A DNA stretch of 64,000 bases from a virus. Under the pieces are notes generated by a model that was given only the letters and a program-made list of their open reading frames with translations, searched no databases and was not told the DNA's origin. This document shows positions 6,672 through 43,043 of the stretch, in pieces. The stretch lies in the IMG/VR virus record IMGVR_UViG_3300045988_154277. One strand, 5' to 3'. A program made the translations under genes and the position numbers. The first letter of the stretch is position 1. The number at the start of each line of letters is the position of its first letter.

Positions 6672-6740
6672 AGCATGACCCCTGATAGGTAGGCTAGCCT
6701 ACCTATCAGGGGTATGGTGTATGCTTGTAAAGAGTACCGT

Positions 6741-11109: not shown

Positions 11110-12264
11110 TTGTGATTCCTCCATAGTCGTACATGATAGCGATTGTACGTCGTTTTTAACTCGGTCAATATCTGGTAAATTCTCTATACCAAACATAACC
11201 ATAAGCTCATCTGTGGTGTACTTGTGTGTTGCGATTTTTGCACGTAGATCTTGTAGTTCTTCCTTGGTAAGAGGAGTTCTATTGTTTCTATCTGCAGCAT
11301 CATGTGCAGCTTTTAATGTCTTTGCACTCTCTCCCTTTCGGTACGGTACTTCATCTGTAGTGATGCATCGATAAATCATAGCTTCCGATTTATGCATCTT
11401 AGCGCTTAGTGTATTATACGTCCATCCGAGTTTATACATATCTCTTATGTAATAAACCTCGTCTTTGGAAAGAACATCACGTATTTTAACAGTCTTCCTA
11501 GTGCCCCGGACGTTCCTTACAGGATCACCCGGATCTAACGGATAAGTGATCCCATCCAATGCATTCGAAATGGTGTGTCGATCTACATTAAAGTACTCTG
11601 CTAGTTTCCAAATCTTCCACTTCTCCTTCCCATACAGTCGACGGATCTCTTTTACTTGATCACGATTTAACTTGCTATGATTTGAATTATAGTGTTTATC
11701 ACGATAACGATCAATATCAATAGCTTTATCAGATGTTGTCCGATAGTACGTCTCATTTACAGCAGTTGATATCAACGAACCCTGTACATTGAATTCTTCT
11801 GCAAGATCTTTAATGTGTTCTCCGGACAACACACGAATTTTAAGTTCAGTAACTTGATCGTTTGTTAACTTCGCCTGTGGGTGGGCTTCACCAGACAGCA
11901 TCAGACCCATACGGACAGCGTGATGTTTGTTCTCACTAGATGATACCCATTCCAGATTGGACACATCGTTGTTTTGAGGATTTCCATCAATGTGATTTAC
12001 TTCTCTAAGATTGGCAGGATTTGGAAGAAAAGTCCATGCAACCAAGCGATGTGGGCTTGTTAGGTGACGTGACCCATCTCGTTTCACAAACACACATTTC
12101 AAACGATTATGTTTGTCTGTAAAGTATTTGAGATCCGGTATAACAAACCCTCGTTTTTTAACATACTCAGGAGAATTAGCACCTGGTTTAATACGAACAT
12201 GACCGGTTGTACTAGCTTCATAAATTCCTTCATACCCTTTTACATCTTTCCAGTATTCATTCAT
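8659..12264 (-). CDS. continuous ORF in which an HNH homing endonuclease is fused in frame to the topoisomerase subunit
   Basis: No stop codon between the HNH module and the topoisomerase. Likely start is the ATG at 12264 (MNEYWKDVKGYEGIYEAS), with GGAG 9 nt upstream. The ORF-track GTG start at 12321 overlaps the promoter-like motif. Confidence 0.6.
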   Translation of the reverse strand: MNEYWKDVKGYEGIYEASTTGHVRIKPGANSPEYVKKRGFVIPDLKYFTDKHNRLKCVFVKRDGSRHLTSPHRLVAWTFLPNPANLREVNHIDGNPQNNDVSNLEWVSSSENKHHAVRMGLMLSGEAHPQAKLTNDQVTELKIRVLSGEHIKDLAEEFNVQGSLISTAVNETYYRTTSDKAIDIDRYRDKHYNSNHSKLNRDQVKEIRRLYGKEKWKIWKLAEYFNVDRHTISNALDGITYPLDPGDPVRNVRGTRKTVKIRDVLSKDEVYYIRDMYKLGWTYNTLSAKMHKSEAMIYRCITTDEVPYRKGESAKTLKAAHDAADRNNRTPLTKEELQDLRAKIATHKYTTDELMVMFGIENLPDIDRVKNDVQSLSCTTMEESQMTDSYTSSDIREFTFMEHTRRNAGMLMGKTNLNANIQCVKEYIDNSVDESIDPNRIYHINVILFKGDTTYQIAVLDHGRGIPCEKLRNVFTIPFSTGKADSAAYKYSIGQFGVGAVSSNAISERFVAITKRLDGFAGLTLNRGNVVKSEVMKPIDSIRETVGTIVVHQPDDTILRYTHTFFPTEGVQRLFELVDYIGAFKTNTKFHIYQVDKLLPDSWFKKPYEDMWNYFQKQHGTLIYETPMMISAEDYVRGKFNITEQPLWNLEVKQEVTSPKLLACDISVHLVKNCDRQNGYIATVNDTQIKDKESSHLSVFFEKIRERLTPYLDQDDDEIMTFFERFYNIPFYGYIRAFYKGATYEGQTKHGFKDLDFEKIYGQMLNAYFDTIQDGVWEQMFNIIHDDLVKKFAQFSNKSMNLSSNSKNLAYDMNNEGCYVPARVTDPTITELFITEGNSAGDFVVQERFKHFQAVLKLKGKPINAHTANVEDLRANKVYQDLVKILGVGPRDQDLSRLRFARIGILADADPDGYHINDLVITALLKINPLILASGRVFMANPPLYVMESRDKALFLRDQKALNDARVKIYEKFFNLELYSQMTKNLCQLKGEQYRDFIYLTKRIGGIITRSANKLVIDPMVLEQLVHCVDYLSLYKLDTKMVKNILKLDDCSYHPGAKTLLLSVAGIEISVPMQNLVQEIRSYILPELEMVHWELFDLLVTTKTTTEMERAPMTFMQLYRILQKLDEHYPVHRLKGLGECSGPQLKYTCLDPATRTFTTITSIGDVNRIYDMMGVDTAPRKALVLGDVKSILNQIPEQEVL
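11110..12264 (-). mobile_element. HNH homing endonuclease module (NUMOD4 + HNH_3 + repeated HTH motifs)
   Basis: GYEGIYEASTTGHV (NUMOD4-like), NHIDGNPQNNDVSNLEWVSSSENKHHA (HNH), then repeated NUMOD1/IENR1-like helix-turn-helix segments. Confidence 0.7.
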
Positions 12265-14197: not shown

Positions 14198-14204
14198 GTA
14201 AGTT

Positions 14205-14240
14205 AACATCAGGATGGGATGTTACTCCCATCCTGATGTT
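14205..14240. terminator. bidirectional intrinsic-terminator-like hairpin between convergent genes
   Basis: Perfect 15-bp stem: aacatcaggatggga / tcccatcctgatgtt, 6-nt loop. Confidence 0.6.
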
Positions 14241-14251
14241 ATTTCGTATGC

Positions 14252-14953: not shown

Positions 14954-16606
14954 TTAGTTCAAAACGAACTTGTTGAGATCATCGATCTGATAAGTTGAGA
15001 TCTTCGTACCATGCATGCTCTTCAGAGCATCCGTGGTGAAGGTCGATGTGATATCCACTGCATCCAATGCAAGATGCTTCGCATTCTTCTTCGCATAGAT
15101 GTCGCCCATGCACATGTAACAGAGTCCATGTTGGGCTTGACAATACATCGGAGAACGCACCAAACATGTCTTACCGACGAACTTCTCCATGTTCTGTTCT
15201 GTAAGAAGAACCCAGTTCGAACCATCTTGGATATAGGAACCAAGATAACGTCCGATCTTGTACTTCGAGAAATCCACAGTAAGTCCACGTGTGGTGTGAC
15301 AGTCCTGTTCTGATACGGTAAGGTCCTGAAGAACACGGGTGATGCCTTTGGTTAGTGCACCGCCGAGTTTCGTCTGGTCACCACGGTTGAACGAACCTTT
15401 ACGGGTCTCGTTCGCCATAGCAGGCATCGTCTCTGCGGTCATCCCTTCGGACAGAGAGTTCGGAATAAACACGAAGTTCCCAGTTGTCTTGGAGAACTCT
15501 TCCACACCACCGACCGTCAGATACATCTTCTTACGGGAGATGTTGAAGGGTTTGTCACCGAGCGGCCCATAGAATCGCATCACTTCATCATCTTTGAGAT
15601 AGTTCTTATCCATCGCGATCAAGGTATTCTCGATCTCCATGATGACGTTCGGATCGTTCAACTTATCCTTGTACTTCTCCATCAACTCTTGTTTCACTTT
15701 CCTCACATTCGGATCTGTGGTAAGTGATTTACGAGTATAAGTCGGTACACAGAGTTCAGTGAAGTGTCCGATGAAGTAGAGATCGTTCACATATTGCTTA
15801 TATGCGGATACCGGGATAGAACCGTCCAACATACCTTTGGCAACGATCGTATCGATATAACCGAGATCAAATACGGAGTTCTGATAAGAGATCTTGTCTT
15901 GGAATGGATGAACCAGAAGAAGGTAGTTCAATAAGAACCGACCTACGGTGGTAATCATCTCTTCCTTGCAGTTGATGATCTCACCGGGATTCAGTTGGAA
16001 CGTATCGATCTCACCGAATGCTCTCTGGATCCCGTTGTCCAGGTAGTTCAATGTGAACGAATATGTCTCCTGATCGATATCCGAGACATACACCAGACAG
16101 GACTGACTGCTACCCACAACGGATGCCAAGAACACATCTCCTTCTTGCAAAACACATTTCTGGAAGTGTGTTGCGTTGTAATTCGCAGAGGTGTAGTAAT
16201 CGAAGAGCTCTTGGTTCGTCTTGTTGTAGAGGTCTTTGCTGAACTGATCTGCTTCTTCTTTCTTCTCTGGAGAGAGAGCAAGGTAGTTCCTATACTGGAA
16301 CAGAAGATGGAAAAGACTATCGTTGAACGGATACACCAGTGCGATTTGTCGCATCGCGATCTGTTTCAAAACTTCATCGTCTGTGATATCTTGCTCTTGC
16401 AGAGGAATATACACCGCATCTTCCGGAGGTGTCTTCAATGTAACACGAACAGAATGACGTTCCGGTGTGATCGCTTCGCTCTCATACAGAGGGAAAACAG
16501 GACGTCCACCAACCTGTGTCATGATGTCGATCAAAAATGCACGTTCTAACAGACGTCTCTGGTACTTGATCAAAAACTCTTTCTTATGGATCGGAAGTTC
16601 CATCAC
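14954..16606 (-). CDS. multisubunit RNA polymerase beta-prime subunit fragment (catalytic loop region to the second zinc-binding motif)
   Basis: [42 protein letters not shown] aligns with the E. coli beta-prime bridge helix ([38 protein letters not shown]). [20 protein letters not shown] aligns with [50 protein letters not shown] aligns with [26 protein letters not shown]. Confidence 0.75.
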   Translation of the reverse strand: [550 protein letters not shown]

Positions 16607-17634
16607 TTAGTCCCTCCCAATAATGCTGTCCAAGGAACCTGACGATACAAGTCCCACATGAACCGATAGGTCTGCTCTGAAGCGATCCCTTGATACCGTT
16701 CCAGCTCCTTCTTCATCTTGGCTTCTGGAAGTTCGTCCAGGATCAGAGAGATTACGATCATCACAGCGACTTCATTCGCCAACTCAACCAACTGGTTTAT
16801 CTTCTTCAGATGTTCCCAATGCTCGATGTGATGATCATCTTTCAAATGATGTTGTTGAAGGAACCCAGGTTCTCCGATCTTCTCCTTCTCTTCATGGGAC
16901 AGTGAGTTCCATTTAGCGAAAAGAAGAACGGTATCCGGATGGAGCTTCTCTTTATCATACTGTTTGACAAGACGCATCAGTTTCGTTTTGTTCAACAGTC
17001 CTGTAAATCGATCCAAGATGTAGTTGACATATGCGGTAACCTTCTGTTCCCGTTCGGTCATTACCATCAAGAATTGTTTCACCATCGCAAGCTCATCCTC
17101 TTGGATCGGGATGGGATTCGGATCAGTGTTCATCTCCATCCTCAACTGGATGTTGACGAGATGCGATACCAGAGCATCCGTGCTGTACCAGTATTCGGTA
17201 CCACGATTGATGTACTCCCAAGCGATATCCGTTGGGAAGAGATCGTTGAAGTAAGCCGCGATCTCAAAAAGATAATCCTCAGGAAGATCGATGTTCTCGA
17301 TCATCGCATTGTACTCGGACAACTGTTGTTCATCGAAACTCTTCAGTACTCGATAGTAGTTGTCGAAGTCAAATTTGTGTGCGAGATAGAACATCGTTTC
17401 CAAATCGATAGAGGATTCCAACAACTCTTCTACTGAGAAGTTGGAGTGGATGCCGATCTCTTCCAGGAGATCGAGAACCAGAGTGATCGCTGTATTAAGA
17501 AGATACTGAGGAGTGATCTCCTCAACGTTCTCAACTTCAGCGATGTACCTCTGTTCTTCAAAATAATCGTTGATCCCAGGTGACACGGCACGGCACCTGA
17601 AGATCAACTGTTCAATATAAGGATCGGGTTGCAT
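16603..17634 (-). CDS. hypothetical protein, translationally coupled upstream of the beta-prime fragment
   Basis: 343-aa acidic ORF whose stop overlaps the start of the beta-prime gene. No RNAP motif recognised. Confidence 0.45.
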   Translation of the reverse strand: MQPDPYIEQLIFRCRAVSPGINDYFEEQRYIAEVENVEEITPQYLLNTAITLVLDLLEEIGIHSNFSVEELLESSIDLETMFYLAHKFDFDNYYRVLKSFDEQQLSEYNAMIENIDLPEDYLFEIAAYFNDLFPTDIAWEYINRGTEYWYSTDALVSHLVNIQLRMEMNTDPNPIPIQEDELAMVKQFLMVMTEREQKVTAYVNYILDRFTGLLNKTKLMRLVKQYDKEKLHPDTVLLFAKWNSLSHEEKEKIGEPGFLQQHHLKDDHHIEHWEHLKKINQLVELANEVAVMIVISLILDELPEAKMKKELERYQGIASEQTYRFMWDLYRQVPWTALLGGTK

Positions 17635-18147: not shown

Positions 18148-18192
18148 AGATTCACCTCTTACGTTCACAGCATGTTGTAGACAGAAAAGATA

Positions 18193-18226
18193 CTACTCTA
18201 CCAGGGACTACACCCTGGTAGAGTAG
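18193..18226 (-). terminator. hairpin between ligA and the RNase H gene
   Basis: 14-bp stem ctactctaccaggg / ccctggtagagtag. Confidence 0.5.
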
Positions 18227-18233
18227 TGGATAC

Positions 18234-20167: not shown

Positions 20168-20208
20168 TTGAGTATACTGGTAAGTGGATACCAGTATACT
20201 CAGGAAGA

Positions 20209-22110: not shown

Positions 22111-22656
22111 TTACAGTTTCCATCTCCCTTTTCCCATAACAGATTGCACGATCGACCTGTGCAGTTTAGAATTATCAGGAAGATGCATTCCGATCTCGTA
22201 CGGGATCGTGATACTGAACGCAGTATCGTCATGTATCCCATGTTCCGGACCATGAGACGGGATGGACACTCCCGTTACACGATAACAGTAGTTTGAATCG
22301 TCATACGTTATATCGGATGCTGTTGTGTGGAACATCAGATACTTCGGTTCCAGAGAGGGTATTTGTTCGAGACAGTTCCTCAAGACCTCTGTATCCACAA
22401 GAACATAGTGACCGAAACCATCATGGAAGCACCTGAAATCAATTAAGATCTGAGCTGCTTGCAGGCAGTAATACGTGTACTTCCGGTAGATCGTATCGAA
22501 GAAATCATCATTGTGTTTCAGACCCAACGCACGTGTGATCTTCTGGTTTTGCCATCCGTAAGCATCCACATATGCGATCTGGTTCATTTTCTCAACCAGA
22601 CGTTTCAGTTCTTGGATCTTATCCGAATCAGCATTCGTGTTAGAACAAGTGCTCAT
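22111..22656 (-). CDS. hypothetical protein
   Basis: Start refined to MSTCSN at 22656, with a GGGAGTGG RBS. Confidence 0.4.
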   Translation of the reverse strand: MSTCSNTNADSDKIQELKRLVEKMNQIAYVDAYGWQNQKITRALGLKHNDDFFDTIYRKYTYYCLQAAQILIDFRCFHDGFGHYVLVDTEVLRNCLEQIPSLEPKYLMFHTTASDITYDDSNYCYRVTGVSIPSHGPEHGIHDDTAFSITIPYEIGMHLPDNSKLHRSIVQSVMGKGRWKL

Positions 22657-22927
22657 CGTAACCACTCCCTTCCAAGTCATCATTTAGACTTAATTCACCT
22701 TCGATGTAGTCGTTGTCGATCCCTTCGTCCAACTCCACATACTCAGGCTGCAGGTTATCATCCTCCCTGATGATCTCAGGGGTATCATCTGACGATGCGC
22801 TGATCTCCACCATCTGATCCGGTACTTGTTCACTAGAACAAGTAGGACAGAACATGTAGTCAACGACATCGTCGAACTCCTCTGTGTCATACCAGCGATG
22901 ACACTTACAACATTTGAAATAGCTCAT
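22640..22927 (-). CDS. small zinc-ribbon protein with a polyacidic C-terminal tail
   Basis: CCKCH..(17)..CPTC, then a tail rich in D/E (DDTPEIIREDDNLQPEYVELDEGIDNDYIEGELSLNDDLEGSGYDE). Paralogous in architecture to 28500..28751. Confidence 0.5.
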   Translation of the reverse strand: MSYFKCCKCHRWYDTEEFDDVVDYMFCPTCSSEQVPDQMVEISASSDDTPEIIREDDNLQPEYVELDEGIDNDYIEGELSLNDDLEGSGYDEHLF

Positions 22928-23714
22928 GTATCTTTCCTTTCGGGATCCAAGTCATCCCTTTTGTTAAGTACGTCATACCGGTAATATTCGCATCTACGAA
23001 CCATTTGTGGCTGATGTCGATACTGGATGATGATCGTTTACCATCCGCTCTTTTGAATACGATCTTGAGTCGATCCATCCGGTCATCCCACTTAAGAGAG
23101 TAGTGTTTGCGTGTCTCATCATCGAGCGACTGCATGATGATATCACAGCAGTCGCTCTCAGAGTAGTGTGATGTACTGTTTTGATAATACCAGATGTAGA
23201 AGAAGCGTTGGAGATCCTCCTCCAACGCACCATAGTGTTTGGTCCACTCTCCAGTCGTATCACGACTGGGTTGACTATGTCCCAACTCACACAACTTCTT
23301 GAAATGATGCGATATATGCTCCAAATAGTTGTCGTATCTATCAAGATGTAAATACTGATTCACATCTTCGATCTGAACACGATGCCCGACAACGCTGTTG
23401 TCTTTCGTGTAGAGTTCACAATAAACGAAACGATGATCTCGTTCATACTTACGTGACTCTTTATACGGTTGGATGAAACACTTGCAGGTACCACTCACAG
23501 GATCCCAATCGACGCTGGTTATGATATCGTACTTCGGGTTGTCATCTTGGAACGCATCTACGATGATGGATAGGAAAGTGTGATGTAAACACACTTCCAT
23601 TTCCATCTCATCTTTACACTCCGGAAGTGGACTGCCTTCACATGCAATGCATGCTTTGACAACCACATCTTTCAAAGCTTGTAACGTTTTGACGATCTTC
23701 TGTTCTCTTGTCAT
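22905..23714 (-). CDS. hypothetical protein, possibly a distant member of the tandem paralog family
   Basis: RKYERDHRFVYCELY and LKIVFKRADGK weakly resemble family motifs (DRHHRNCNHYLY, VQFKEGRG). RBS is AAGGAG. Confidence 0.4.
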   Translation of the reverse strand: MTREQKIVKTLQALKDVVVKACIACEGSPLPECKDEMEMEVCLHHTFLSIIVDAFQDDNPKYDIITSVDWDPVSGTCKCFIQPYKESRKYERDHRFVYCELYTKDNSVVGHRVQIEDVNQYLHLDRYDNYLEHISHHFKKLCELGHSQPSRDTTGEWTKHYGALEEDLQRFFYIWYYQNSTSHYSESDCCDIIMQSLDDETRKHYSLKWDDRMDRLKIVFKRADGKRSSSSIDISHKWFVDANITGMTYLTKGMTWIPKGKIHELFQML

Positions 23715-23750
23715 AGTTTACTCCTTCGTGCATAATGTTAAGTTTGACGT

Positions 23751-23780
23751 ATAGAGCGGGATGATACTATCCCGCTCTAT
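23751..23780 (-). terminator. hairpin between paralog-region genes
   Basis: 11-bp stem atagagcggga / tcccgctctat. Confidence 0.4.
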
Positions 23781-23789
23781 ACACAGTAA

Positions 23790-24488
23790 TCATCGATTGA
23801 TATTGATCAACGTGTACCAATGCTTTTTGATCTTGATCGGTACTTCGTGCAACACTCCATAGAACGAGAGTGTGAGATGTCTCTGCTTGGGATACCGTGC
23901 CAAATAACACTGCATCGTCTGACACACCTCAAGGTGCTCTTTCAGATACTTGATGAATGCAGGATATCCATCCACAAGTCCGATACACTCCATATGACTG
24001 TAGATATCCTGGAACTCTTCGTTGAGTTCACGAACAGTTAAGTTCGTATCCCCGCAGATCGCTTCTTGTATGTGTGCATTCAACTGATTGATTTGCTTGT
24101 CCAAAATACCGATCGGAAAGAATCGGCAGATGGACTCGATCTGCAAACGATATCCTACAATCAAACCACGACTCATCGATCTATAAGATCCAACGAAGAT
24201 CTGTCCATACACGAACTGATCAAAATCACGATCCGCATCGACAGGTCTGAGGTAGAACGTATAGGTGTTCCTCCAGGTATCCCATTTCCCATCATATTCG
24301 ATATTGATGGTTGGGAATTTAGTCTCCAGCTGATGTATCACGTTCATCAATGAACTACGGAGCTGCCCTTCTATGCTACGAGTATCAACACCCGTTAACG
24401 GACAATACATCAAAATATTGATATGAGCACTTATGGTGTTCCGTATGGTGCCCACGATCAATGATTCTTTCAATGTTACTTGTTCCAT
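23790..24488 (-). CDS. divergent member of the tandem paralog family
   Basis: YTFYLRPVDADRDFDQFVYGQI matches FMFRLDRYHDDCKHFVYGSI of 26209..26949. GLIVGYRLQIESICRFFPIG matches FLIHGVNIQIAPVISRRI. Confidence 0.5.
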   Translation of the reverse strand: MEQVTLKESLIVGTIRNTISAHINILMYCPLTGVDTRSIEGQLRSSLMNVIHQLETKFPTINIEYDGKWDTWRNTYTFYLRPVDADRDFDQFVYGQIFVGSYRSMSRGLIVGYRLQIESICRFFPIGILDKQINQLNAHIQEAICGDTNLTVRELNEEFQDIYSHMECIGLVDGYPAFIKYLKEHLEVCQTMQCYLARYPKQRHLTLSFYGVLHEVPIKIKKHWYTLININR

Positions 24489-24501
24489 TTTGATATTCCT
24501 T

Positions 24502-25029
24502 TCACTGTAACTGTTTAATGCAATCTGTTAGAGCTGCTTCCAACCGCGGGTTGTGATAACGCTCACCAAGTTGCAAGACGGAGTTGATCTCTTCCTGTGA
24601 CAAAACACGCATGAACTTCGTATCTGCTTTGAGACACTGGTGTTCATCGAAATAATGAGATAACCATGCGATTTCGTGTACATTATCTGTACGAAAATCC
24701 GATGGATCGAGGATCTCTACATCGACTCCAAAATCAGACGGATCAGAACCATCACACCCGAAGATGTGATAATACGAGCCATCGATACGTGCGTAATAAT
24801 GATTGTACGTACCACGCAATACCTCCTTCCGTAATGTATGGTACGGGGTTCCTTCTAACATCATCCCTACACCAACGATGTGACTATCGTAATGGTGAAA
24901 TGCTGTACAAAGGATCTGAGCGAACCGAAAGCACTGTCCGTTCGCATAGATGAGTTCATGCCATAGTCCGACACTCGGTTGTTCCTTCGGATGGAACAAC
25001 TCGATGAAATCTATCACCTCCTGATGCAT
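24502..25029 (-). CDS. hypothetical protein
   Basis: 175 aa. The GAGGAGTG RBS overlaps the upstream stop. Confidence 0.45.
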   Translation of the reverse strand: MHQEVIDFIELFHPKEQPSVGLWHELIYANGQCFRFAQILCTAFHHYDSHIVGVGMMLEGTPYHTLRKEVLRGTYNHYYARIDGSYYHIFGCDGSDPSDFGVDVEILDPSDFRTDNVHEIAWLSHYFDEHQCLKADTKFMRVLSQEEINSVLQLGERYHNPRLEAALTDCIKQLQ

Positions 25030-25036
25030 ATTCCAT

Positions 25037-25423
25037 TCACTCCTCTGGATAGATCCAACTCAAGTTGATACCCTGTCCTCGATATAAGACCTGTTTGGTC
25101 GGATAACGACCTCCGAGTAACTCTATGATCATCATTGCAGTATCCGGAAGTCCAGCATACCGGAACTTCACGTATTGACACCATTTATCACTGTGACGTG
25201 AAGTATAGATCTGCTGGAACGTCAAAAGACGTTCCGGATGTTGAATATTGAGTTCACTTACATAATGCTCAAGAGCATCATTCACTTTTGAATGAGTGGT
25301 CCTCTCAATAAACTCCATCTCGGTCTCATACTCAAACGGTTTAAACGAGTCAACCAAATGGCGTCTCAGATCAGTAAGGTTGATCTGATCTTTCAGTTGT
25401 TGTGATATCGTAAGTTCTTCCAT
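25037..25423 (-). CDS. hypothetical protein
   Basis: 128-aa ORF, coupled to its neighbours. Confidence 0.45.
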   Translation of the reverse strand: MEELTISQQLKDQINLTDLRRHLVDSFKPFEYETEMEFIERTTHSKVNDALEHYVSELNIQHPERLLTFQQIYTSRHSDKWCQYVKFRYAGLPDTAMMIIELLGGRYPTKQVLYRGQGINLSWIYPEE

Positions 25424-25438
25424 GATGAAGTCTCCTTG

Positions 25439-26137
25439 TTATTCAAACGTGTCTAAAAGTGAATCATTTAACGCGATATGACGAACCAGGATCGCGTTAC
25501 CTTTGTAATAGAATCCGATGACCAAATTACCCTGCTCGTACCAAAACTTGATGTTGCGATATCCTGTATATCCCAACATCTTCTTCAATGATTGACAGAA
25601 TGCACGTTTGCTCAGATCAGGATCTCGCCACTTGGAAATATTCCAAAGTTCTTCGATACATGGTTTCAGCAATTCTAAATAGTTCGGTACAATCGAATAT
25701 GCTACCTTGAACGCGATCAAGATCTGATCGATGAGTTTTCTCGCTGTGGACTGTGCGTTCTGATACTGCGTATCAGAGAACCGATCAGGGATCGGCAAGC
25801 ACTCCACATTGACAGCTCTGATCAACCACAGGTTGTCATCCTGACAAGTCATTTCTATTTGACCGCACAAATACTGATGTGTTGGACGAACCGTGTCGGT
25901 GAGTGTAAACCTGATACAACAAGTACGGTTCTCTTCTCGTTTGGATTCGTCACCGTTGTCGCACAATCGCTTCAGTTCTGGATAGACAAAACGAAGTACA
26001 TAGCGCACGTCCCACAGTGCATGGTGGATAACGCGTGTGGGATATGGATACTTTTTCCCTAGCAGTCCACCAAGTGTTTTTAACACGGTCTCCTGGAGTT
26101 GATACAAATTCTGATTTTGTGTTGTTATCTGAGTCAT
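25439..26137 (-). CDS. tandem paralog family member 1
   Basis: Shares WLIRAVNVECLPIPDRFSD, IEELWNISKWRDPDLSKRAF and GYRNIKFWYEQGNLVIGFYYKGNAIL with the three following genes. Confidence 0.55.
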   Translation of the reverse strand: MTQITTQNQNLYQLQETVLKTLGGLLGKKYPYPTRVIHHALWDVRYVLRFVYPELKRLCDNGDESKREENRTCCIRFTLTDTVRPTHQYLCGQIEMTCQDDNLWLIRAVNVECLPIPDRFSDTQYQNAQSTARKLIDQILIAFKVAYSIVPNYLELLKPCIEELWNISKWRDPDLSKRAFCQSLKKMLGYTGYRNIKFWYEQGNLVIGFYYKGNAILVRHIALNDSLLDTFE

Positions 26138-26162
26138 GATGGTCCTCTTTGTTAATGACTCG

Positions 26163-26198
26163 TACTTAGGGGTAGTAAAATAACTACCCCTAAGTACT
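26163..26198 (-). terminator. hairpin between tandem paralogs 1 and 2
   Basis: 14-bp stem gtacttaggggtag / ctacccctaagtac. Confidence 0.5.
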
Positions 26199-26208
26199 TA
26201 TGTTGTTA

Positions 26209-26949
26209 TTAGAAATGCGGGTTCAGTGAGATAACAGTCTGATGTTCTTTCTGTCCACGATGGTGGTACTCGATGAACAACTTGTTCTTTTCAGAGCGGA
26301 AGTAGATCGTACGATATCCATCGTAGTCCAGAAGAGACTTGATCCTCTTGGCGAACTGACAGATTGTGATATCGGGATTCGTCCATTTGCAGTGATCCCA
26401 AATTCTGTCGATACGTTCGTCCAGCTTGTTTTCAACAGGTTTCAGATAATGCTGAAGATCGTGATCTGATCGATCCTTTCTAATCTTCTGAAGACCCGAC
26501 TGGATATCTTCGATGTACCGTCGAGCGAACATCCGATCACTGCGGAATTCGTCTGCATCAATACGACGACTTATCACAGGTGCAATCTGTATATTTACAC
26601 CGTGGATCAAGAAGGATCCCTCCTGATGAGTGGTCATAATCGATCCGTAGACGAAGTGTTTGCAATCATCGTGGTACCGATCCAACCGAAACATGAATTT
26701 ACTGTGACTGTATCGTTCCCCGTGTTGACCCTTCGGTGACAGCCACTTCGTATCGATGTGATCCATGAAGAGTTCCAATTCAGGAAGTGAGAGTTTACCT
26801 CGTAGGTTGTGGTGAAGTTCATGAAGGAGTCTGTTGATCACTTTCTCGGGTTGTGTGTAGGAACGACCAAGCAACGATTGGGTTGCTTCCAGTGATGCGA
26901 TCTGGATCTGTTTCAGATCGCTTGCGTAAGGATCGTGTGTTTGTGCCAT
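26209..26949 (-). CDS. tandem paralog family member 2
   Basis: Start refined to MAQTHDPY at 26949 (ACGGAGGAA RBS). Motifs FRLDRYHDDCKHFVYG, FLIHGVNIQIAPV, IDRIWDHCKWTNPD, DYDGYRTIYF. Confidence 0.55.
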   Translation of the reverse strand: MAQTHDPYASDLKQIQIASLEATQSLLGRSYTQPEKVINRLLHELHHNLRGKLSLPELELFMDHIDTKWLSPKGQHGERYSHSKFMFRLDRYHDDCKHFVYGSIMTTHQEGSFLIHGVNIQIAPVISRRIDADEFRSDRMFARRYIEDIQSGLQKIRKDRSDHDLQHYLKPVENKLDERIDRIWDHCKWTNPDITICQFAKRIKSLLDYDGYRTIYFRSEKNKLFIEYHHRGQKEHQTVISLNPHF

Positions 26950-26989
26950 GGGGTTCTTCCTCCGTATGGTTATTGGGTTATGTTTTGTA

Positions 26990-27017
26990 TTAGGAGGGAA
27001 CACGATATCCCTCCTAA
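26990..27017 (-). terminator. hairpin between tandem paralogs 2 and 3
   Basis: 10-bp stem ttaggaggga / tccctcctaa. Confidence 0.4.
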
Positions 27018-27030
27018 TGCACTGCTTCGT

Positions 27031-27714
27031 TTACAGTATCTCGTCAAATGCAGAATACAAGACGAGATGTTTTGTGGTCATGAGTTCGTCTTTGTAATAG
27101 AAGTTGATCAACATCTCACATCCACGACCTTCCTTGAACTGAACGGTACGACAACGTTCATAGTCAAGAAGAGCTGGTAATGTACGACGGACGAATGTCG
27201 TCCGATCCAACTCAGGATGTTGCCACTTCATGATACACCAGATGTTGAAGATGGTTGCTCCTAAAAACTCCATCTTATCACAAATGCATTGAGATGTTCC
27301 ACGGATCCCACGCTGGATCTGTCCGATCGTAAGTTTCACATCATGGATGTCTTCACAGAGCGTATCATTCGATCTGTAGTCGCCTGGGATCCGTCTACAT
27401 GTCACTGCGACAGCGTGGATCAACCAAGATCCGTTGAAGAGTTCCATATCAACTCTGATGTAAAGATAATGATTACAGTTGCGATGGTGACGATCCATCC
27501 GGAGGATGATCGTGTAAGAAGTGGTATCTTCTGGATCTAACTCTTGTGGATCCCTAAATACTTCCAATCCTCTGTCGATATACTTCGTAGTTGCTGATGC
27601 GATCGTTTGACCGATCGTCGTTACGGGATCCAGATGGTACGTCCCGATCAACTTCTGGAATGATTTCAACAGATCAGCTTGGATCCGTCTTAAGATTTCT
27701 TCCGATGTTAACAT
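27031..27714 (-). CDS. tandem paralog family member 3
   Basis: Likely start is MLTSEEIL at 27714 (the ORF-track start at 27732 lies inside a hairpin and has no SD). Motifs MDRHHRNCNHYLYIRVDME, WLIHAVAVTCRRIPGDYRSND, IWCIMKWQHPELDRTTF, DYERCRTVQFKEGRGCEMLINFYYKDEL. Confidence 0.55.
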   Translation of the reverse strand: MLTSEEILRRIQADLLKSFQKLIGTYHLDPVTTIGQTIASATTKYIDRGLEVFRDPQELDPEDTTSYTIILRMDRHHRNCNHYLYIRVDMELFNGSWLIHAVAVTCRRIPGDYRSNDTLCEDIHDVKLTIGQIQRGIRGTSQCICDKMEFLGATIFNIWCIMKWQHPELDRTTFVRRTLPALLDYERCRTVQFKEGRGCEMLINFYYKDELMTTKHLVLYSAFDEIL

Positions 27715-27737
27715 AATGATATTTCCTTTCATGTTGC

Positions 27738-27773
27738 CTACTTGGTAAGGGTATCGATACCCTTACCAAGTAG
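27738..27773 (-). terminator. hairpin between tandem paralogs 3 and 4
   Basis: 17-bp stem ctacttggtaagggtat cg atacccttaccaagtag. Confidence 0.5.
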
Positions 27774-27780
27774 GATGTTG

Positions 27781-28500
27781 TTACAATAGATCCTCGAGTG
27801 ATTCACTCAGATGGATCTTGTGGGCAAGGATCAGTTCTCTCTTATAGTAGAACTCTACGATCAACTCACCATCTTTTCCTTCTTTGAATTGAACCTTCGT
27901 ATAACGTTCGTATTCCAAGTAGGACGTTAATCCAGAACTGATGAATGTCTTAAGTGGCATCCACGGTTCGTGCCATTTGGTGAAGGACCAGATGTGTAAG
28001 ATCTTGGAGTCTAAAAACTCCAAAGTACGTGTAATCGTACCATCGTAGTCCAATGTATTCACGAACCCTCTTGCGGATCGGATCATCAGATGGAGCTTAT
28101 CGAATGCACGTCTTGCATCTGAGATACTCCTGGCAAGTTCATCACTGGTTCTATATACATCCGGAACCGGTTTGCATTTCACAGTAACGGAGTGGATCAA
28201 CCACTTATGATCAGCACAGTGTTCCATCTCCACTTTACCGTAAAGATAGTGGGCACTGCTACAACGACCGTGACCGATCCTCACCAAGAACGCATACATA
28301 GTACCCTGTTCCGTGTGTCTCGGTAACAGGTTCTTGCCATCATAGATGTAAAGTCCGTAACCCGAGTACTGCTCATATATAGAACCGAGCACATGTGTGA
28401 TCCGCAGTAACGGATCATCAGAACTGGTTCCAAGGAACCCACGAAGTTCCTTCAGTAAAGTTGTTTGGATACCCCTAAGGAACTGTTCTTCTTGTGTCAT
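27781..28500 (-). CDS. tandem paralog family member 4
   Basis: Motifs HGRCSSAHYLYGKVEME, WLIHSVTVKCKPVPDVYRTSD, IWSFTKWHEPWMPLKTF, EYERYTKVQFKEGKDGELIVEFYYKREL. Its start overlaps the stop of the upstream zinc-ribbon gene (TAATG). Confidence 0.55.
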   Translation of the reverse strand: MTQEEQFLRGIQTTLLKELRGFLGTSSDDPLLRITHVLGSIYEQYSGYGLYIYDGKNLLPRHTEQGTMYAFLVRIGHGRCSSAHYLYGKVEMEHCADHKWLIHSVTVKCKPVPDVYRTSDELARSISDARRAFDKLHLMIRSARGFVNTLDYDGTITRTLEFLDSKILHIWSFTKWHEPWMPLKTFISSGLTSYLEYERYTKVQFKEGKDGELIVEFYYKRELILAHKIHLSESLEDLL

Positions 28501-28751
28501 TATAACTCCTCCTCGAACTCTTCGTTCGGTACATCGATGTCATCGTAAGATGCATCGAGATAGTTGTCTCCATCGTCGTAGAGATCATCCTCTTCCTCGT
28601 ACAGCTCTTCCATCTCATCTGTGTCATCCTCTACACTGAACATGTTCCCTCTGTACAGGCAGTCGGGACAGCAGTCCTCTGCAGCTTCAGACTCATCAGT
28701 GTAGTCGGATGGTTCATACATGTCACCACAATACTTGCAACGGTACATCAT
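28500..28751 (-). CDS. small zinc-ribbon protein with a polyacidic tail
   Basis: CKYCGD..(14)..CCPDC, then EDDTDEMEELYEEEDDLYDDGDNYLDASYDDIDVPNEEFEEEL. Translationally coupled to paralog member 4. Confidence 0.55.
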   Translation of the reverse strand: MMYRCKYCGDMYEPSDYTDESEAAEDCCPDCLYRGNMFSVEDDTDEMEELYEEEDDLYDDGDNYLDASYDDIDVPNEEFEEEL

Positions 28752-28770
28752 ACTGTTCCTCCTTGTAAGA

Positions 28771-29265
28771 TTACCATTCTGGTTGTTTACTTGCTAATAC
28801 CTCTACGTTCGAAGAACGAACGTAGTACTTGCCTTGGCGTTGACGGATGGACAGCGTCATCTTGTAACGTAATTTGGACTCCACCTCAAACGAGTTGGAC
28901 TCTCGCCCTTTGGCCATCACCTCCGGTGCGTAATCGATCCATTTTCTCTCACATGCGATGTACACGATACACGCACCTGTCCATGACGTGGCTGTTGTAG
29001 TCGTATCTTGGATCGAGATCGATACTTTCGGAGTAGTATCACGAGATTTATCATCATGATACTTAGGATCTTTCACCATCTCGTTGATCCAACTGTATAA
29101 CCATTGTAAAATCTGATCCAGAGATGTGTTTTCAATGGTAACGTCAGGATACAGAGATGGTAGGTCTCTGCTTCTTTGTACGACATGGTTGATCCGTTCG
29201 TGAAGTTCAGACCGAACATGTCGTGTATAGCGATACCGCTCTTGTTCTAGTTTCTTAGTGATCAT
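28771..29265 (-). CDS. hypothetical protein
   Basis: 164-aa ORF. Confidence 0.45.
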   Translation of the reverse strand: MITKKLEQERYRYTRHVRSELHERINHVVQRSRDLPSLYPDVTIENTSLDQILQWLYSWINEMVKDPKYHDDKSRDTTPKVSISIQDTTTTATSWTGACIVYIACERKWIDYAPEVMAKGRESNSFEVESKLRYKMTLSIRQRQGKYYVRSSNVEVLASKQPEW

Positions 29266-30240: not shown

Positions 30241-30849
30241 TTATCGGTTGTGATGCCAATGTTTCACATGTTGTGGTAGATCTTGTTCTTTGGTATAGAT
30301 TTTGCTTAAGTAGCTATATTTGTAAATAGCGTTCTTAAAGTGTTCGATCGACATCTGATCTCGTTCTAGTATCATCCTGTTGCACTCAGCACTGCGGTAT
30401 TCGACCAATCCAGGAAGATATACTCCGATCGTATTACACCAGTGACATTCTAACACTTCTCCTATGGTGATAAAGCTTTTACATACACTACCATCCACCC
30501 ATAAGGCGAGATGGTAGTGTTGATGTGTACTATCGTTGCGTTCTCTTACCCATACGTAAGAAGGATGAGTGAACGCTATCCCTCGTAGGAATAATTCCAT
30601 CGTATTGCAGAAACAAGTGTTATCATTCACAGCCTCCTGGTAAAAGAATTGAGGGAACCTTATAGTGAAGGTTCCAAATAGAGTTGATTTCCTCCTATCT
30701 AGAATACGCTCTGTCAATCGTATTCCGTATTCAAGGATATTGAGATAATGCCCCATCTCATCTGTAGTTCGTACTGGAGATTGGTAAAGAGGCAGTTGAT
30801 CTCCGTTATAAGGGTAATAAGGAATTACCCATTTCTTGTATCGGTACAT
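30241..30849 (-). CDS. HUH-superfamily (Rep-like) endonuclease candidate
   Basis: Motif order and spacing resemble rolling-circle Rep proteins: LFGTFTIRF (motif 1, FuTuT), HQHYHLALWV (HUH motif 2), AIYKYSYLSKIYTK (Tyr motif 3). Confidence 0.4.
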   Translation of the reverse strand: MYRYKKWVIPYYPYNGDQLPLYQSPVRTTDEMGHYLNILEYGIRLTERILDRRKSTLFGTFTIRFPQFFYQEAVNDNTCFCNTMELFLRGIAFTHPSYVWVRERNDSTHQHYHLALWVDGSVCKSFITIGEVLECHWCNTIGVYLPGLVEYRSAECNRMILERDQMSIEHFKNAIYKYSYLSKIYTKEQDLPQHVKHWHHNR

Positions 30850-33396: not shown

Positions 33397-33431
33397 GAAC
33401 TACAGGGAGTTGGTTAGACTCCCTGTAGTTC
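33397..33431. terminator. bidirectional hairpin between convergent genes
   Basis: 14-bp stem gaactacagggagt / actccctgtagttc. Confidence 0.55.
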
Positions 33432-38360: not shown

Positions 38361-40247
38361 ATGGAACGTCGACCGATTAATCGTGTTGTCCAACCGATGG
38401 AAGATGGTCTTCCTGAAGTCCCGCCAACTGAAGTGATTGTGGATAAACATCCAGAACCACAGCCTTCTGAACCAACACCATCTGCTGTGACAGATGAGGA
38501 CTGGGCGAAGGAGATCGAGCGTGAGAAAGCGGAACAGGAAGCTGTCCTGAAGAAACTTGCGGAAGAAGAGAAAGCTACTGAGCAGAAGGTAACAGAGACT
38601 CAACAGCATGAGATGCAAGCGGATCAGAAGATCGCCGAACTGGAACGACAGCTGGCTGAACTGAAAGCCCAGCAAGCCAAACCGGTACAGGAACCACCGA
38701 AGCCACAGCCGCAACCTGTTGCCCCTAAAGAACCCAAACAAGAAGCACAACAGCCTGCTCCCTCAGCACCTGTGAATCCTCTTGAAAAACTCCAACAGGA
38801 TGAACTGGGTGGGACTTTGTCACAGAATACCCCTGAAGCGAATGCTCCGAAAGAGGAGATCGTCGATCCCGTCCAGAAGAAACACGATGAGATCGCTACC
38901 AAGAACAACTGTTCCAACCGTGTCTTTACAGACAATGGTACGGAAGATGATCTGGACAACGCGATCATCACGTACGACAGAGAGGATCAGCGAGATGAAG
39001 AAGCCAAAGAGGAATCGCCTTCTCCTGGTATCATCGCGATGTCACTCTGTGCACAAGCGGGACAGAAGACCAAACAAGCTCGTATGATGAACCGGTATAT
39101 CAATGAGCTCAAGGAGTTGAATCAGAAGTTCGAGATCCTCACGGAAAGCGTCCTCCGTCTGTCCAAGATCACTCCTCGCCTCCCCAAGAACGACAAGACA
39201 ACACCGATCCATCTGTCCGGCGATGCTGCGAAGATCGCCGTTCTTTCCAGAACACAGGGACTGTACCGGATCATGCTCTACAACAGTGGCTTTTGGATCA
39301 CGGTTCGTCCTCTTACGGTATCGGATGCTTCTGCGTTCGTTCATGAAGTGGACAATGATTTCAAAGAACTGGGTCGGATCTTGGGTGGACAATTCCATCT
39401 GGTCCTCGGTGCCTATCTGAAACAGAAGGTGCTGGAGATCCTTCCCAATGTGATCGTCTCTTCGAACCTGGAAGACTGGGATCAGCCGGATGTGCTCGGA
39501 GAAGCGATCTCCATGCACGATTACGATACGATCCTCTGGGGGATCTGTTGTTCCATGTATCGAGACGGGATCGGGATCGGGGTCCACTGCACCAATATGG
39601 AATGTCGTCATATCGACGCCAACCAATATGTGGATCTCACCAAGGCGTGTTACATCAATCCCGATGTGTTCAATGAGGAAGCGATGACGTGGATGCGCGA
39701 TACGAGAGTCAACAGGACCTTGGATGATTGTCTCAGATATCGCAACACTATCCTGAAGTCTACCAAGACGCTCCCGATGGATGACAACAAGGTGTTGATC
39801 CACATGCGTGTTCCCTCTATCCAGACCTACACAAAACGCAGTGTTGAACTGATCGGGAAGATGCAGTCTGCGATCTATCGGGCGAAGACCCGTAAGAACC
39901 AGGAACTGCAGAATCAAGTGATCTTCCACATTTACAAGATGCTGGCTCCCTGGATTTCATCGATCGTCTACAAGAACGAGTCGGATGCGGATGTTGTGAT
40001 CGAAGGTTACGATGCGATCTGCGCCGACTTGGAAGCCAGAGCAGAACAGGACCACACTCTCTACAGCAAACTGGAAGAATATATTCGCGATACGAAATGT
40101 TCGATGTACTGTCTGACTTCGATCGAATGTCCGAAGTGTCACAAGAAACCCAATCTCAACTCTGAAGGACTGTTCCCGTTGGATGTTGAGTACCTTTTTT
40201 TCGGGTTAACCTGTCTGAAGTTGGAGCAGACAGGAGCACAATTGTAA
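38361..40247 (+). CDS. hypothetical protein with a disordered Pro/Gln/Glu-rich coiled-coil N-terminus and a globular Cys-containing C-terminal domain
   Basis: ATG at 38361 with an AAGGAG RBS. Ends 45 nt after a T_TTT_TTC slippery site. Confidence 0.5.
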   Translation: MERRPINRVVQPMEDGLPEVPPTEVIVDKHPEPQPSEPTPSAVTDEDWAKEIEREKAEQEAVLKKLAEEEKATEQKVTETQQHEMQADQKIAELERQLAELKAQQAKPVQEPPKPQPQPVAPKEPKQEAQQPAPSAPVNPLEKLQQDELGGTLSQNTPEANAPKEEIVDPVQKKHDEIATKNNCSNRVFTDNGTEDDLDNAIITYDREDQRDEEAKEESPSPGIIAMSLCAQAGQKTKQARMMNRYINELKELNQKFEILTESVLRLSKITPRLPKNDKTTPIHLSGDAAKIAVLSRTQGLYRIMLYNSGFWITVRPLTVSDASAFVHEVDNDFKELGRILGGQFHLVLGAYLKQKVLEILPNVIVSSNLEDWDQPDVLGEAISMHDYDTILWGICCSMYRDGIGIGVHCTNMECRHIDANQYVDLTKACYINPDVFNEEAMTWMRDTRVNRTLDDCLRYRNTILKSTKTLPMDDNKVLIHMRVPSIQTYTKRSVELIGKMQSAIYRAKTRKNQELQNQVIFHIYKMLAPWISSIVYKNESDADVVIEGYDAICADLEARAEQDHTLYSKLEEYIRDTKCSMYCLTSIECPKCHKKPNLNSEGLFPLDVEYLFFGLTCLKLEQTGAQL

Positions 40248-40642: not shown

Positions 40643-42529
40643 ATGCCAACTGTACAGCAAGAACCGAATATCGGCTTCGTTCCGATGGATAACAACATCG
40701 GTATGAGCAATCGGTTAGAGAAAGATGAGATGCAGAAGATCATGGTTGAAACACTCGGCGACCTTGCCGATGTGCTGAAAGATCACTGCGGTCCGTATGG
40801 TAAGTATGCAGCGATCACATCTCCTGTGAACCCCTCTGCAGAACCGATCTTCACGAAAGACGGGATCAACATCGTCCGTTCGATCGACTACGTGTCTCAG
40901 GTGCAACAGTTCATCAGGCACACACTGATGTACATGGGATCTCGTATCGAATCTACAGCAGGTGATGGTACGACTTCTGCCATGATCATCATGGCTGTTG
41001 CGATGAAGAACCTGATCCGATCGATCAACGATATTCCCTGCACCTATCAAGATCTGATCTATGTATATCAGAAATACATCCTGGACAAGATGGATGGTGG
41101 ATATAAGGAACATTATGGGTATCATGTCGATAACCAGCAGTTCAAGAACTACGCCAGTCTCCATACAGAGTACGAGGGTGGTGAAGCTTCTACGATGAAG
41201 AAGGGGATCCGTTATATCGCTTACAGTCAAGCGTATACCTCGTCGCATGGTGATATTGAACTTTCCAACATCATCGCTGATCTGTTCGCGAATACTCCGA
41301 AAGAAGTGTGGCACCTCTTCTCTCTGGACAAAGCAGCATATGAAACCAAAGAGCGGTATGTGGTGGATACGGAGTGCTGTCAGTGGAAGGTGGAGGGATG
41401 TCAGCTCTTTCCTCTTACGCAGATGTCAGAGGAGTTCGGCACCGCAGCGATCCGAGAGAACGCTACAACGTTGTTGACGGATCACGGGATATCGGTTGGA
41501 GATGACTATACCAAACCAGTCAGAAATCGAATCGAACAAGCGATCTTGAATGATGAACAGTTGACGGTTCTGGTAACTGGCAACTTAGATACCGCAACCA
41601 ACATGTGGTTGACTGGGTTGTTCCAGCAACATCCGAACCACATGATCAGTATCTACATGATCACTCCTGGAGATTATGGTCTGTGGAACGACATTCCCTA
41701 CATGAAGGTTGCATCAGGACAGCAGCCCACAGAAGTGATGGAGTTCCAACTGGACTACAAGTTCAACGGACGTGATCTCACGATCACCAAAGGTCTGTAC
41801 GAAGACGATGACAAAACTACTTGTCATATGCATCCGTTCTACAAGAACGAAGCATATCCTCTTTACAACGACTTCGTTGCCAGATTGGAACATCAGATCA
41901 AGATCCAGTCTTCTGTTGTGGCTACCAGAGAGTCCAACAACACGGTCGCCCACATGAAGAAGATGCTCAGCAAACTCATCGTGGTGAATCGCAACTACTT
42001 CCGAGTTGGCGGTGCTGCATATGACAATGCTGCCGCGGTTGATGTAGCGGTAGATGTCCTCACAGCAGTGAAGAACACTCTGATCAATGGATGCGCTCTC
42101 GGATCCAACAAGACGTTGTATCAATTCTTCCATAATCGGAAGAAGAATGCGGTTGATCTTGGTATGGATCAGAAGACTTCGAAGATCCTGGTTGCTTTTG
42201 CAGATGCGTTCATGTCTGCGATCGAAGAGACCTTCACTGCGATGTTTCGTTTCGCACCGACGATGCGTCCTGCAGATGATCGTATTAAAGAGATCCTACT
42301 GGAACCTGTTCCGTACAACATCCTGGAACAAGATCAATCCAGTGCAGAGTATCATAACCTTTATGATATGTGCTTCTCTGAACACACGAACCAACCAGCT
42401 GTGCTTCAACCGATCGATACCGATATGGCCATCGTAAGACGGTTCGGTGAAGTGGCTCTTCGGTTCGTGAAAACAGCGCGACTGGTCTCAGAGGGCGGTA
42501 TCTACGTCAACCAAAAGAAGGACTCTTGA
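40643..42529 (+). CDS. divergent chaperonin (GroEL/Cpn60-like)
   Basis: LADVLKDHCGPYGKYAAI, FTKDGINIVRSIDY and TAGDGTTSAMIIMA align with the GroEL N-terminal equatorial domain (LADAVKVTLGPKGRNVVL, ITKDGVSVAREIEL, AAGDGTTTATVLA). Length is 628 aa. Confidence 0.75.
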   Translation: MPTVQQEPNIGFVPMDNNIGMSNRLEKDEMQKIMVETLGDLADVLKDHCGPYGKYAAITSPVNPSAEPIFTKDGINIVRSIDYVSQVQQFIRHTLMYMGSRIESTAGDGTTSAMIIMAVAMKNLIRSINDIPCTYQDLIYVYQKYILDKMDGGYKEHYGYHVDNQQFKNYASLHTEYEGGEASTMKKGIRYIAYSQAYTSSHGDIELSNIIADLFANTPKEVWHLFSLDKAAYETKERYVVDTECCQWKVEGCQLFPLTQMSEEFGTAAIRENATTLLTDHGISVGDDYTKPVRNRIEQAILNDEQLTVLVTGNLDTATNMWLTGLFQQHPNHMISIYMITPGDYGLWNDIPYMKVASGQQPTEVMEFQLDYKFNGRDLTITKGLYEDDDKTTCHMHPFYKNEAYPLYNDFVARLEHQIKIQSSVVATRESNNTVAHMKKMLSKLIVVNRNYFRVGGAAYDNAAAVDVAVDVLTAVKNTLINGCALGSNKTLYQFFHNRKKNAVDLGMDQKTSKILVAFADAFMSAIEETFTAMFRFAPTMRPADDRIKEILLEPVPYNILEQDQSSAEYHNLYDMCFSEHTNQPAVLQPIDTDMAIVRRFGEVALRFVKTARLVSEGGIYVNQKKDS

Positions 42530-43006: not shown

Positions 43007-43043
43007 ATCACTAGGGATGTGGATATCCACATCCCTAGTGATC
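43007..43043. terminator. bidirectional hairpin between convergent operons
   Basis: 17-bp stem atcactagggatgtgga / tccacatccctagtgat. Confidence 0.55.

Follow-up and report, generated by a model that had tools for sequence, protein, structure and literature searches.

What does a tandem array of diverged genes, held between two small acidic zinc-ribbon proteins, do for the phage that carries it, and is its variability that of a host-interaction locus? The array occupies positions 22640-28751 of a 64,000-nucleotide (nt) stretch of the IMG/VR virus record IMGVR_UViG_3300045988_154277; this whole stretch is referred to here as the window. The initial annotation, made from the DNA alone, described it as an accessory island of four to six rapidly diversifying paralogs separated by strong hairpins, and did not recognise the family. 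We find that the locus is a lineage-restricted, structurally unmatched, hairpin-delimited, recombining and apparently dispensable array within a conserved zinc-ribbon bracket, that its paralogs are old, and that related phages keep different subsets of them. The predicted open reading frames (ORFs) are all present at the coordinates originally assigned to them, and the ORF listing of the window places every gene from 22640 to 29265 on the minus strand. Read directly from the sequence, a Shine-Dalgarno-like motif precedes every gene, so that each has its own ribosome-binding site as had been proposed, and the predicted translational coupling of the zinc-ribbon gene ZR2 to the first member of the P family (P4) is visible as a TAATG overlap. 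The features are listed below in the direction of transcription, with protein lengths in amino acids (aa) and hairpin folding free energies (dG) in kcal/mol; P and F1 denote the two larger protein families of the island.

28771-29265, minus strand: unnamed gene, 164 aa.
28500-28751, minus strand: ZR2, 83 aa, Cys4 zinc ribbon with an acidic tail; its stop codon overlaps the P4 start.
27781-28500, minus strand: P4, 239 aa, P family; in 7 of 7 close relatives, at 62-94% aa identity.
27737-27774: hairpin after P4, perfect over 17-19 bp; dG -28.9, z -7.9.
27031-27714, minus strand: P3, 227 aa, P family; in only 2 of 7 close genomes.
26989-27018: hairpin after P3, core stem of 11 bp; dG -19.1, z -4.1.
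26209-26949, minus strand: P2, 246 aa, P family; in 3 of 7 close genomes, with orthologs only 55-61% identical.
26162-26197: hairpin after P2, perfect over 15 bp; dG -26.7, z -7.7.
25439-26137, minus strand: P1, 232 aa, P family; in 5 of 7 close genomes.
25037-25423, minus strand: unnamed gene, 128 aa, from a second small variable family with 128-141-aa paralogs in relatives.
24502-25029, minus strand: weakly YunG-like gene, 175 aa, present in some relatives and absent from others.
23790-24488, minus strand: F1-232, 232 aa, F1 family.
23749-23782: hairpin between the F1 genes, perfect over 14 bp; dG -26.0, z -8.0.
22905-23714, minus strand: F1-269, 269 aa, F1 family; its stop lies 23 nt past the ZR1 start, so that the two genes overlap by 23 nt.
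22640-22927, minus strand: ZR1, 95 aa, Cys4 zinc ribbon with an acidic tail.
22111-22683, minus strand: unnamed gene, 190 aa.

Comparison of synteny and copy number among relatives bears out the description of an accessory locus. Twelve arrangements were rebuilt for the slot between a YagK/YfjJ-like gene and the ligase gene; they are given below with relatives designated by L numbers and the remaining genes by the length of their product in aa.

Window: ZR2-P4-P3-P2-P1-128-175-F1-F1-ZR1.
L004: ZR2-P4-131-P2-P1-128-175-F1-F1-ZR1.
L002 and L011: ZR2-141-P4-13x-P1-128-175-F1-F1-ZR1.
L013: ZR2-F1-175-P4-132-P1-129-F1-ZR1.
L008: ZR2-F1-P4-P3-P2-129-F1-ZR1.
L001: P4-F1-ZR1.
L017: ZR2-P-143-F1-ZR1.
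L018 and L019: ZR2-F1-177-P-ZR1.
L023: ZR2-139-P1 fragment-184-92-P-146-F1-ZR1.
L021: ZR2-P4::P2-P1-128-175-F1-F1-ZR1.
L022: ZR2-139-P4::F1-ZR1.

Intact P copies range from 0 to 4 over the 12 arrangements, the window holding the maximum seen, and at least one P and at least one F1 copy are kept in 11 of them. The zinc-ribbon bracket is the constant feature of the slot. The P genes of the close relatives fall into four orthology groups, from P4, found in all seven, down to P3, found in two, and three more P subtypes are less than 50% identical to these groups.

Part of this variation is produced by recombination within the array. Three natural deletion chimeras of a window-like array were found, each confirmed in the DNA. 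In L021, P4 is joined to the C-terminus of P2 with loss of window bases 28039-26331 and a junction overlap of 13 nt; in L020, P3 is joined to P1 at the homologous KW..P motif, giving a full-length hybrid with loss of bases 27207-25634 and an overlap of 21 nt; and in L022, residues 1-94 of P4 are joined to the C-terminal part of F1-269, with about 5 kilobases (kb) lost and an overlap of 12 nt. Recombination between paralogs that share 12-21 nt at the junction thus shortens the array and leaves in-frame hybrid genes. Remnants are also observed, namely a 54-aa ORF in L013, the 65-aa protein P0045, a 139-aa P1 fragment in L023 and a 188-aa P4::P2 fusion. No intact P or F1 gene is present in the 12.6 kb of L022 that were examined, and the array therefore appears to be dispensable.

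Substitution rates were estimated as pairwise Nei-Gojobori ratios of nonsynonymous to synonymous divergence (dN/dS) between the window and close relatives. The family-B DNA polymerase PolB (92-99% aa identity) gave dN/dS of 0.02-0.04, compared with 0.13-0.41 for P4 (62-94%), 0.35-0.44 for P1 (83-91%), about 0.2 for P2 with dS saturated (55-61%) and 0.08-0.30 for F1 (60-98%); ZR1 (93-100%) gave 0-0.07 and ZR2 (72-99%) 0.04-0.14. The P-gene values are 5-20 times that of the polymerase. All gene-wide values are below 1, which indicates that the genes are functional, yet positive selection is not demonstrated. In some pairs P4 dS also exceeds PolB dS (0.74 vs 0.20 for the window and L004), so that part of the divergence would reflect older alleles brought in by recombination. 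The most pronounced case is the pair L017 and L019, in which identity is 97-99% for PolB, ligase, RNase H and two more flanking proteins, 95% for ZR1 and 88% for ZR2, while it is only 48% for the P genes and 34% for the F1 genes, and the order of these two is reversed. The locus thus combines copy-number variation, recombinant alleles and a substitution rate above that of core genes, the features looked for in an arms-race array. The claim of rapid diversification holds in that copy number varies from 0 to 4, dN/dS is 5-20 times the polymerase value and deletion chimeras occur, but it needs qualification, as retention of old paralogs and recombination contribute as much as point substitution.

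The four intergenic hairpins of the island are real (dG -19 to -29 kcal/mol, z -4 to -8), as had been noted, but they are not peculiar to it. Many gene boundaries across the whole window carry perfect hairpins of 14-22 bp with a loop of about 6 nt (for example 1193-1243, 6678-6713, 14204-14241, 18192-18227, 20169-20202, 33397-33431, 43007-43042 and 62109-62150), and hairpins are therefore a property of the genome rather than a feature of the island. Their identification as canonical intrinsic terminators was rejected because the sense strand has no U-tract; they may be a phage-specific terminator or an RNA-processing signal for the phage-encoded RNA polymerase. The hairpin after P4 is nearly invariant in six relatives, even where P4 itself is down to 65% aa identity. 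At the aligned site in L001 a different hairpin is predicted to fold, with six pairs changed on both sides; since it is similar to the hairpin after P2, it may have been replaced as a whole and not altered by compensatory change. When the window is aligned with its relatives at the DNA level, the alignments end at the hairpins (27728, 26981, 26150 and 23739), which identifies a gene plus its downstream hairpin as the unit of gain and loss. Sigma-70-like promoter sites are below the expectation from shuffled sequence, and the phage has its own RNA polymerase.

The paralogy of P1-P4 is well supported, with mutual BLASTP matches over their full length (E 1e-14 to 2e-43), and the motifs first picked out by eye are present in the alignment of the four. 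Since the copies are intact yet only 24-33% identical, the duplications that gave rise to them are ancient, as originally suggested. Twenty columns are invariant across the P family, mostly hydrophobic, and the sole polar ones are Q12, E64 and K175. With no catalytic-looking site among them, we infer that the family is a binding protein rather than an enzyme. The AlphaFold2 model of P4, a confident one built from a 25-sequence alignment (predicted local distance difference test, pLDDT, 86; predicted template modeling score, pTM, 0.79), predicts the topology H H E E E E H H H E E E (H, helix; E, strand), with helices at residues 3-20 and 30-48, four strands within 50-111, three helices within 119-195 and three strands within 203-230. 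An internal duplication of the fold was rejected, as comparison of the N-terminal with the C-terminal half by hhalign gave P 0.28.

Neither the sequences nor this model led to a known protein. P1-P4 and the two F1 proteins gave best E values of at least 0.024 against Pfam-A, PHROGs v4, NCBIfam and PADLOC, all below the cut-offs; a profile search of PDB by sequence gave a best E of 0.16; and the P4 model has no match in PDB or BFVD. The initial failure to recognise the family is thus upheld by both the curated libraries and the fold search. At the nucleotide level, the region had no megablast match among 50,697 phage records, and tblastn of P4 and F1-269 against the same records, which include all sequenced phiKZ-like phages, gave none either. 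Literature searches found no description of the P family or of the island architecture.

The family is confined to one lineage in larger collections as well. A word-indexed profile search of 5.8 billion proteins returned 28 clusters for the P family, and an exhaustive HMMER search of 1.84 billion representatives returned 9 matches. The P-family matches are all unannotated, and the contigs examined are relatives of the window phage, a few matches lying on contigs too short to show gene context. The same lineage restriction holds for F1, with 13 clusters. A scan of IMG/VR added one locus only, L023. This contig (IMGVR_UViG_3300045988_163688), the only one in IMG/VR with the family, is 361 kb long, compared with 255-282 kb for the other relatives, a length that could reflect a larger relative, concatenation or faulty assembly.

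The count of "four to six" members stands for the four P paralogs; the remaining two candidates form the separate family F1, whose link to P is marginal, so that the island holds four solid paralogs and a second, two-member family. F1-232 and F1-269 are related to each other (BLASTP E 2e-5) and fall with 233-, 238-, 248- and 251-aa proteins of relatives into a single hidden Markov model (HMM) family. Profile comparison of F1 with P by hhalign gave P 0.0035-0.023 at a probability of 2-9%. The P-family HMM scored the 232/238-aa type of F1 at an empirical p of about 0.001-0.01 against shuffled decoys and the 269-aa type at chance level. Among about 170 ORFs, P and F1 are each other's best out-of-family match; the confident N-terminal half of the F1-232 AlphaFold2 model contains two helices, four strands and three helices in the order seen in P4; and P and F1 exchange positions between related genomes. 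Together the reciprocal best match, the order of elements and the exchange of positions favour a remote relationship, and F1 may be a distant branch of the P family. The P4::F1 chimera (P0028) was considered as proof of such homology and rejected: residue 94 of P4 is joined to approximately residue 158 of F1, and a junction this far out of register marks a deletion product.

Both zinc-ribbon proteins consist of a Cys4 ribbon of about 30 residues (CxxC...CPxC) followed by a D/E-rich tail of 45-60 residues. ZR1 has 28 D+E in 95 residues and ZR2 has 33 in 83, each with an isoelectric point (pI) of 4.05. Their proposed paralogy was upheld by alignments enriched from the database, in which hhalign gave a probability of 90-94% and P 1e-7 to 2e-6; from the two window sequences by themselves the support was weak (P 3e-4 to 2e-3). 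The two have in common the motif CKxCHRxYDxD[DE]F[TD]D...CPxC ahead of the acidic tail. Searches of the protein database returned 39 clusters of the family, restricted to the same lineage. Comparison with the Lar-like phrog_6422 (E 0.14) and the FmdB-like phrog_1076 (E 0.06) showed agreement in CxxC spacing only. ZR1 is present in 12 of 12 arrangements and ZR2 lies upstream of the array in 11 of 12. The idea that the zinc ribbons are fast-evolving accessory genes is contradicted by these data: with dN/dS of 0-0.14 and presence in almost every relative, they show the strongest conservation in the locus, and ZR1 is under strong purifying selection.

The slot and its borders hold further genes. 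The 175-aa protein encoded at 24502-25029 has a weak YunG-like match in Pfam (PF24591, E 6.6e-5, below the curated cut-off), and its gene occupies two alternative positions among the genomes. Pfam, PHROGs, NCBIfam and PADLOC otherwise contained no significant match to a protein of the island. The 128-141-aa family contributes one or two copies per genome (25037-25423 in the window, with 9562-9987 in L002 and 10789-11184 in L004 cited for the small families of the slot), and a 131-134-aa family, which is not in the window, takes the place of P3/P2 in several relatives. Both small families were considered as truncated P genes, and this was rejected since neither gave an HMM signal. The YagK/YfjJ_C or Rep-like gene beside the island (30241-30849, minus strand) has only 37-40% identity to its counterpart in six close relatives but 64-66% to those of L017, L019 and L023, which are more distant; recombination immediately outside the array seems to have replaced the allele. 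In L002 a TnpB-like gene (OrfB_IS605 / Cas12f-like TNB, 389 aa; 15902-17071) is inserted just beyond the ZR1 side.

Judged by its predicted proteins, the window is from a phiKZ-like jumbo phage of an uncultivated lineage. Its PolB, a divergent member of family B (PF20286), shares about 26% identity with the polymerases of Goslar and Ea35-70. A 549-aa protein (14954-16603, minus strand) is a fragment of a phage multisubunit RNA polymerase beta subunit (phrog_2962, E 4e-97), a match that groups the phage with the phiKZ-like phages encoding their own split RNA polymerases. The closest solved relative of its GroEL-like chaperonin is that of phage EL (6tmt, E 4e-6), and the window also encodes an NAD-dependent ligase, GyrB, and tail-tube and head-tail joining proteins. 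The relatives are metagenome contigs of 255-282 kb, and one related record is labelled human gut metagenome.

Two other regions of the window are of note. A 1201-aa ORF (8659-12264, minus strand) combines a NUMOD4/HNH_3/HTH homing-endonuclease-like part (residues 1-233) with GyrB (residues 422-1182; HATPase_c, Toprim and the GyrB C-terminus). In L017 and L019 these parts are two separate genes, of 337 and 816 aa; the ORF could be a read-through fusion, or GyrB could use an internal start. Two adjacent genes each encode 628 aa (38361-40247 and 40643-42529, both plus strand). The second is the GroEL-like chaperonin; for the product of the first the only matches are phrog_4585, a family without assigned function, and hypothetical proteins from jumbo phages of Serratia and Erwinia (about 20% identity).

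What, then, is the array for? The reading we tentatively favour, at a probability of roughly 0.45, is that P and F1 are non-enzymatic binders of variable host factors, acting in counter-defence or takeover, with the zinc ribbons as constant partners or decoys. The host-takeover or anti-defence role first suggested for the island is plausible on this reading. The island would be a hyperplastic host-interaction module made of hairpin-delimited, moron-like cassettes that encode two lineage-restricted families, P and F1, of predicted non-enzymatic alpha/beta proteins of about 235 aa. Individual paralogs would bind distinct host factors or distinct variants of one factor, most probably targets of defence or takeover in early or mid infection, and the mix of paralogs would tune host range. 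The array runs in the same direction as the genes for PolB, ligase, RNase H and the RNA polymerase beta subunit, which suggests, by inference, non-late expression; P and F1 would be expressed together with these co-oriented replication genes. The zinc ribbons, whose genes overlap their neighbours (ZR2 with P4, and F1-269 with ZR1), would be constant partners or nucleic-acid-mimicking decoys.

Several points weigh against this host-factor-binding role. Gene-wide dN/dS is below 1, and the values are accounted for just as well by relaxed constraint combined with the keeping of old alleles. Known anti-defence proteins show no similarity. Almost every genome keeps at least one P, at least one F1 and ZR1, which could mean a near-essential basal role, and the sole genome without an intact copy, L022, is one short-read contig. 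Paralogous families of phiKZ-like phages also include virion-internal proteins.

In a more specific form, which we regard as unlikely as it stands, the ZR2-to-ZR1 block would be an undescribed two-part counter-defence system of gut jumbo phages, in which the acidic zinc ribbons are constant nucleic-acid-mimicking or scaffold subunits and the P/F1 cassettes, with a new alpha/beta fold, are interchangeable specificity subunits directed against host immunity proteins. If this were true, the paralog repertoire would determine host range.

The alternative that survives best, improbable as we judge it, is a basal role for the module as an accessory to the phage's own replication, transcription or compartment machinery, with the zinc ribbons as transcription or replication factors, P and F1 as their adaptors, and copy-number variation largely neutral redundancy. 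ZR1 is universal in the clade at dN/dS 0-0.07; the genes adjoin and are co-oriented with those for PolB, NAD-dependent ligase, RNase H and RNA polymerase beta; and the overlaps with the zinc-ribbon genes suggest a fixed stoichiometry. Zinc ribbons are, moreover, common in transcription factors, and in Bacillus phage G an expanded zinc-ribbon family has been discussed as possible transcription factors (Iyer et al. 2021, PMC7824862). A core adaptor, however, should neither differ by 52-66% and change its place in the gene order between phages with flanking proteins of 97-99% identity nor dwindle to one chimeric ORF as in L022, and homologs were not detected by tblastn or HMMER in any other phiKZ-like phage.

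We consider it quite improbable that P and F1 are virion-packaged internal or ejected proteins, with the acidic zinc ribbons co-packaged or acting as assembly chaperones. The phage is phiKZ-like, and the head-internal proteins of phiKZ-like phages include families of paralogs, non-enzymatic and 200-300 aa long, that differ from one relative to the next; the retention of P and F1 in 11 of 12 arrangements would also fit a structural role. The array, however, has replication and transcription genes as neighbours and shares their orientation rather than that of the window's head-tail genes; the tblastn searches of deposited phages with P4 and F1-269, described above, detected no sequence relatedness to the inner-body or internal head families of the phiKZ type; and one genome (L022) has no intact copy. 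That the extra copies are decaying, functionless duplicates and the array a by-product of recombination-prone repeats is scarcely credible: truncated remnants and out-of-register chimeras exist, but all four window P copies are full-length with ribosome-binding sites, each orthology group has dN/dS of 0.13-0.44 at dS of 0.1-1.6, indicating long-term purifying selection, and the paralogs have remained intact since an ancient duplication.

Among known systems, three are probably the closest analogies: the hyperplastic regions of T4-like phages with their internal-protein (ip) locus, phage morons, and the gene accordions of large viruses. In T4-like phages the ip locus is polymorphic, and its product IPI* blocks the GmrSD restriction enzyme. 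Like that locus, the island is a defined slot in a conserved large-phage genome, filled with small, non-enzymatic, fast-diverging genes whose number and identity vary between close relatives. It differs in having no sequence or fold similarity to it and in consisting of paralogs of one or two families in a conserved zinc-ribbon bracket. The morons of HK97 and the lambdoid phages are independently acquired cassettes with their own promoter and terminator. The island genes resemble them in having their own ribosome-binding site and a strong hairpin after them, in their variable presence and in presence/absence breakpoints that fall at the downstream hairpins. Unlike morons, the island cassettes are duplicated paralogs rather than unrelated imports, their hairpins occur genome-wide without a sense-strand U-tract, and no promoter was identified.

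Large DNA viruses expand tandem paralogs as gene accordions, for example by amplification of poxvirus K3L. Copy number in the island likewise shifts by recombination between tandem copies, with hybrid genes at the junctions, but its copies are ancient (24-33% identity) rather than recent and identical, and mainly contraction and differential retention are observed. For the zinc ribbons, comparison can be made with the acidic DNA-mimic anti-restriction proteins Ocr and ArdA and with small acidic-tailed zinc-ribbon inhibitors, namely the E. coli gyrase inhibitor YacG and the restriction-alleviation protein Lar. ZR1 and ZR2 resemble these in being very acidic, with a Cys4 ribbon and a D/E-rich tail, a likeness of composition only. 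They have no significant similarity to these proteins, and conservation of this degree, the highest in the locus, is not typical of anti-defence genes.

Nucleus-forming and other phiKZ-like jumbo phages have mostly been studied in Pseudomonas, Erwinia and E. coli hosts. The lineage of the window is an uncultivated gut-metagenome relative whose most variable locus is made of families with no detectable relatives or matching fold. At present the island is of value as a well-delimited lead rather than a demonstrated mechanism, and its natural chimeras and copy-number series provide a ready set of alleles for testing. Should the paralogs prove to be host-specific inhibitors, they would lead to new defence targets among gut bacteria and offer new inhibitor scaffolds; should the module prove structural or basal, it would define a component of jumbo-phage biology peculiar to this lineage.

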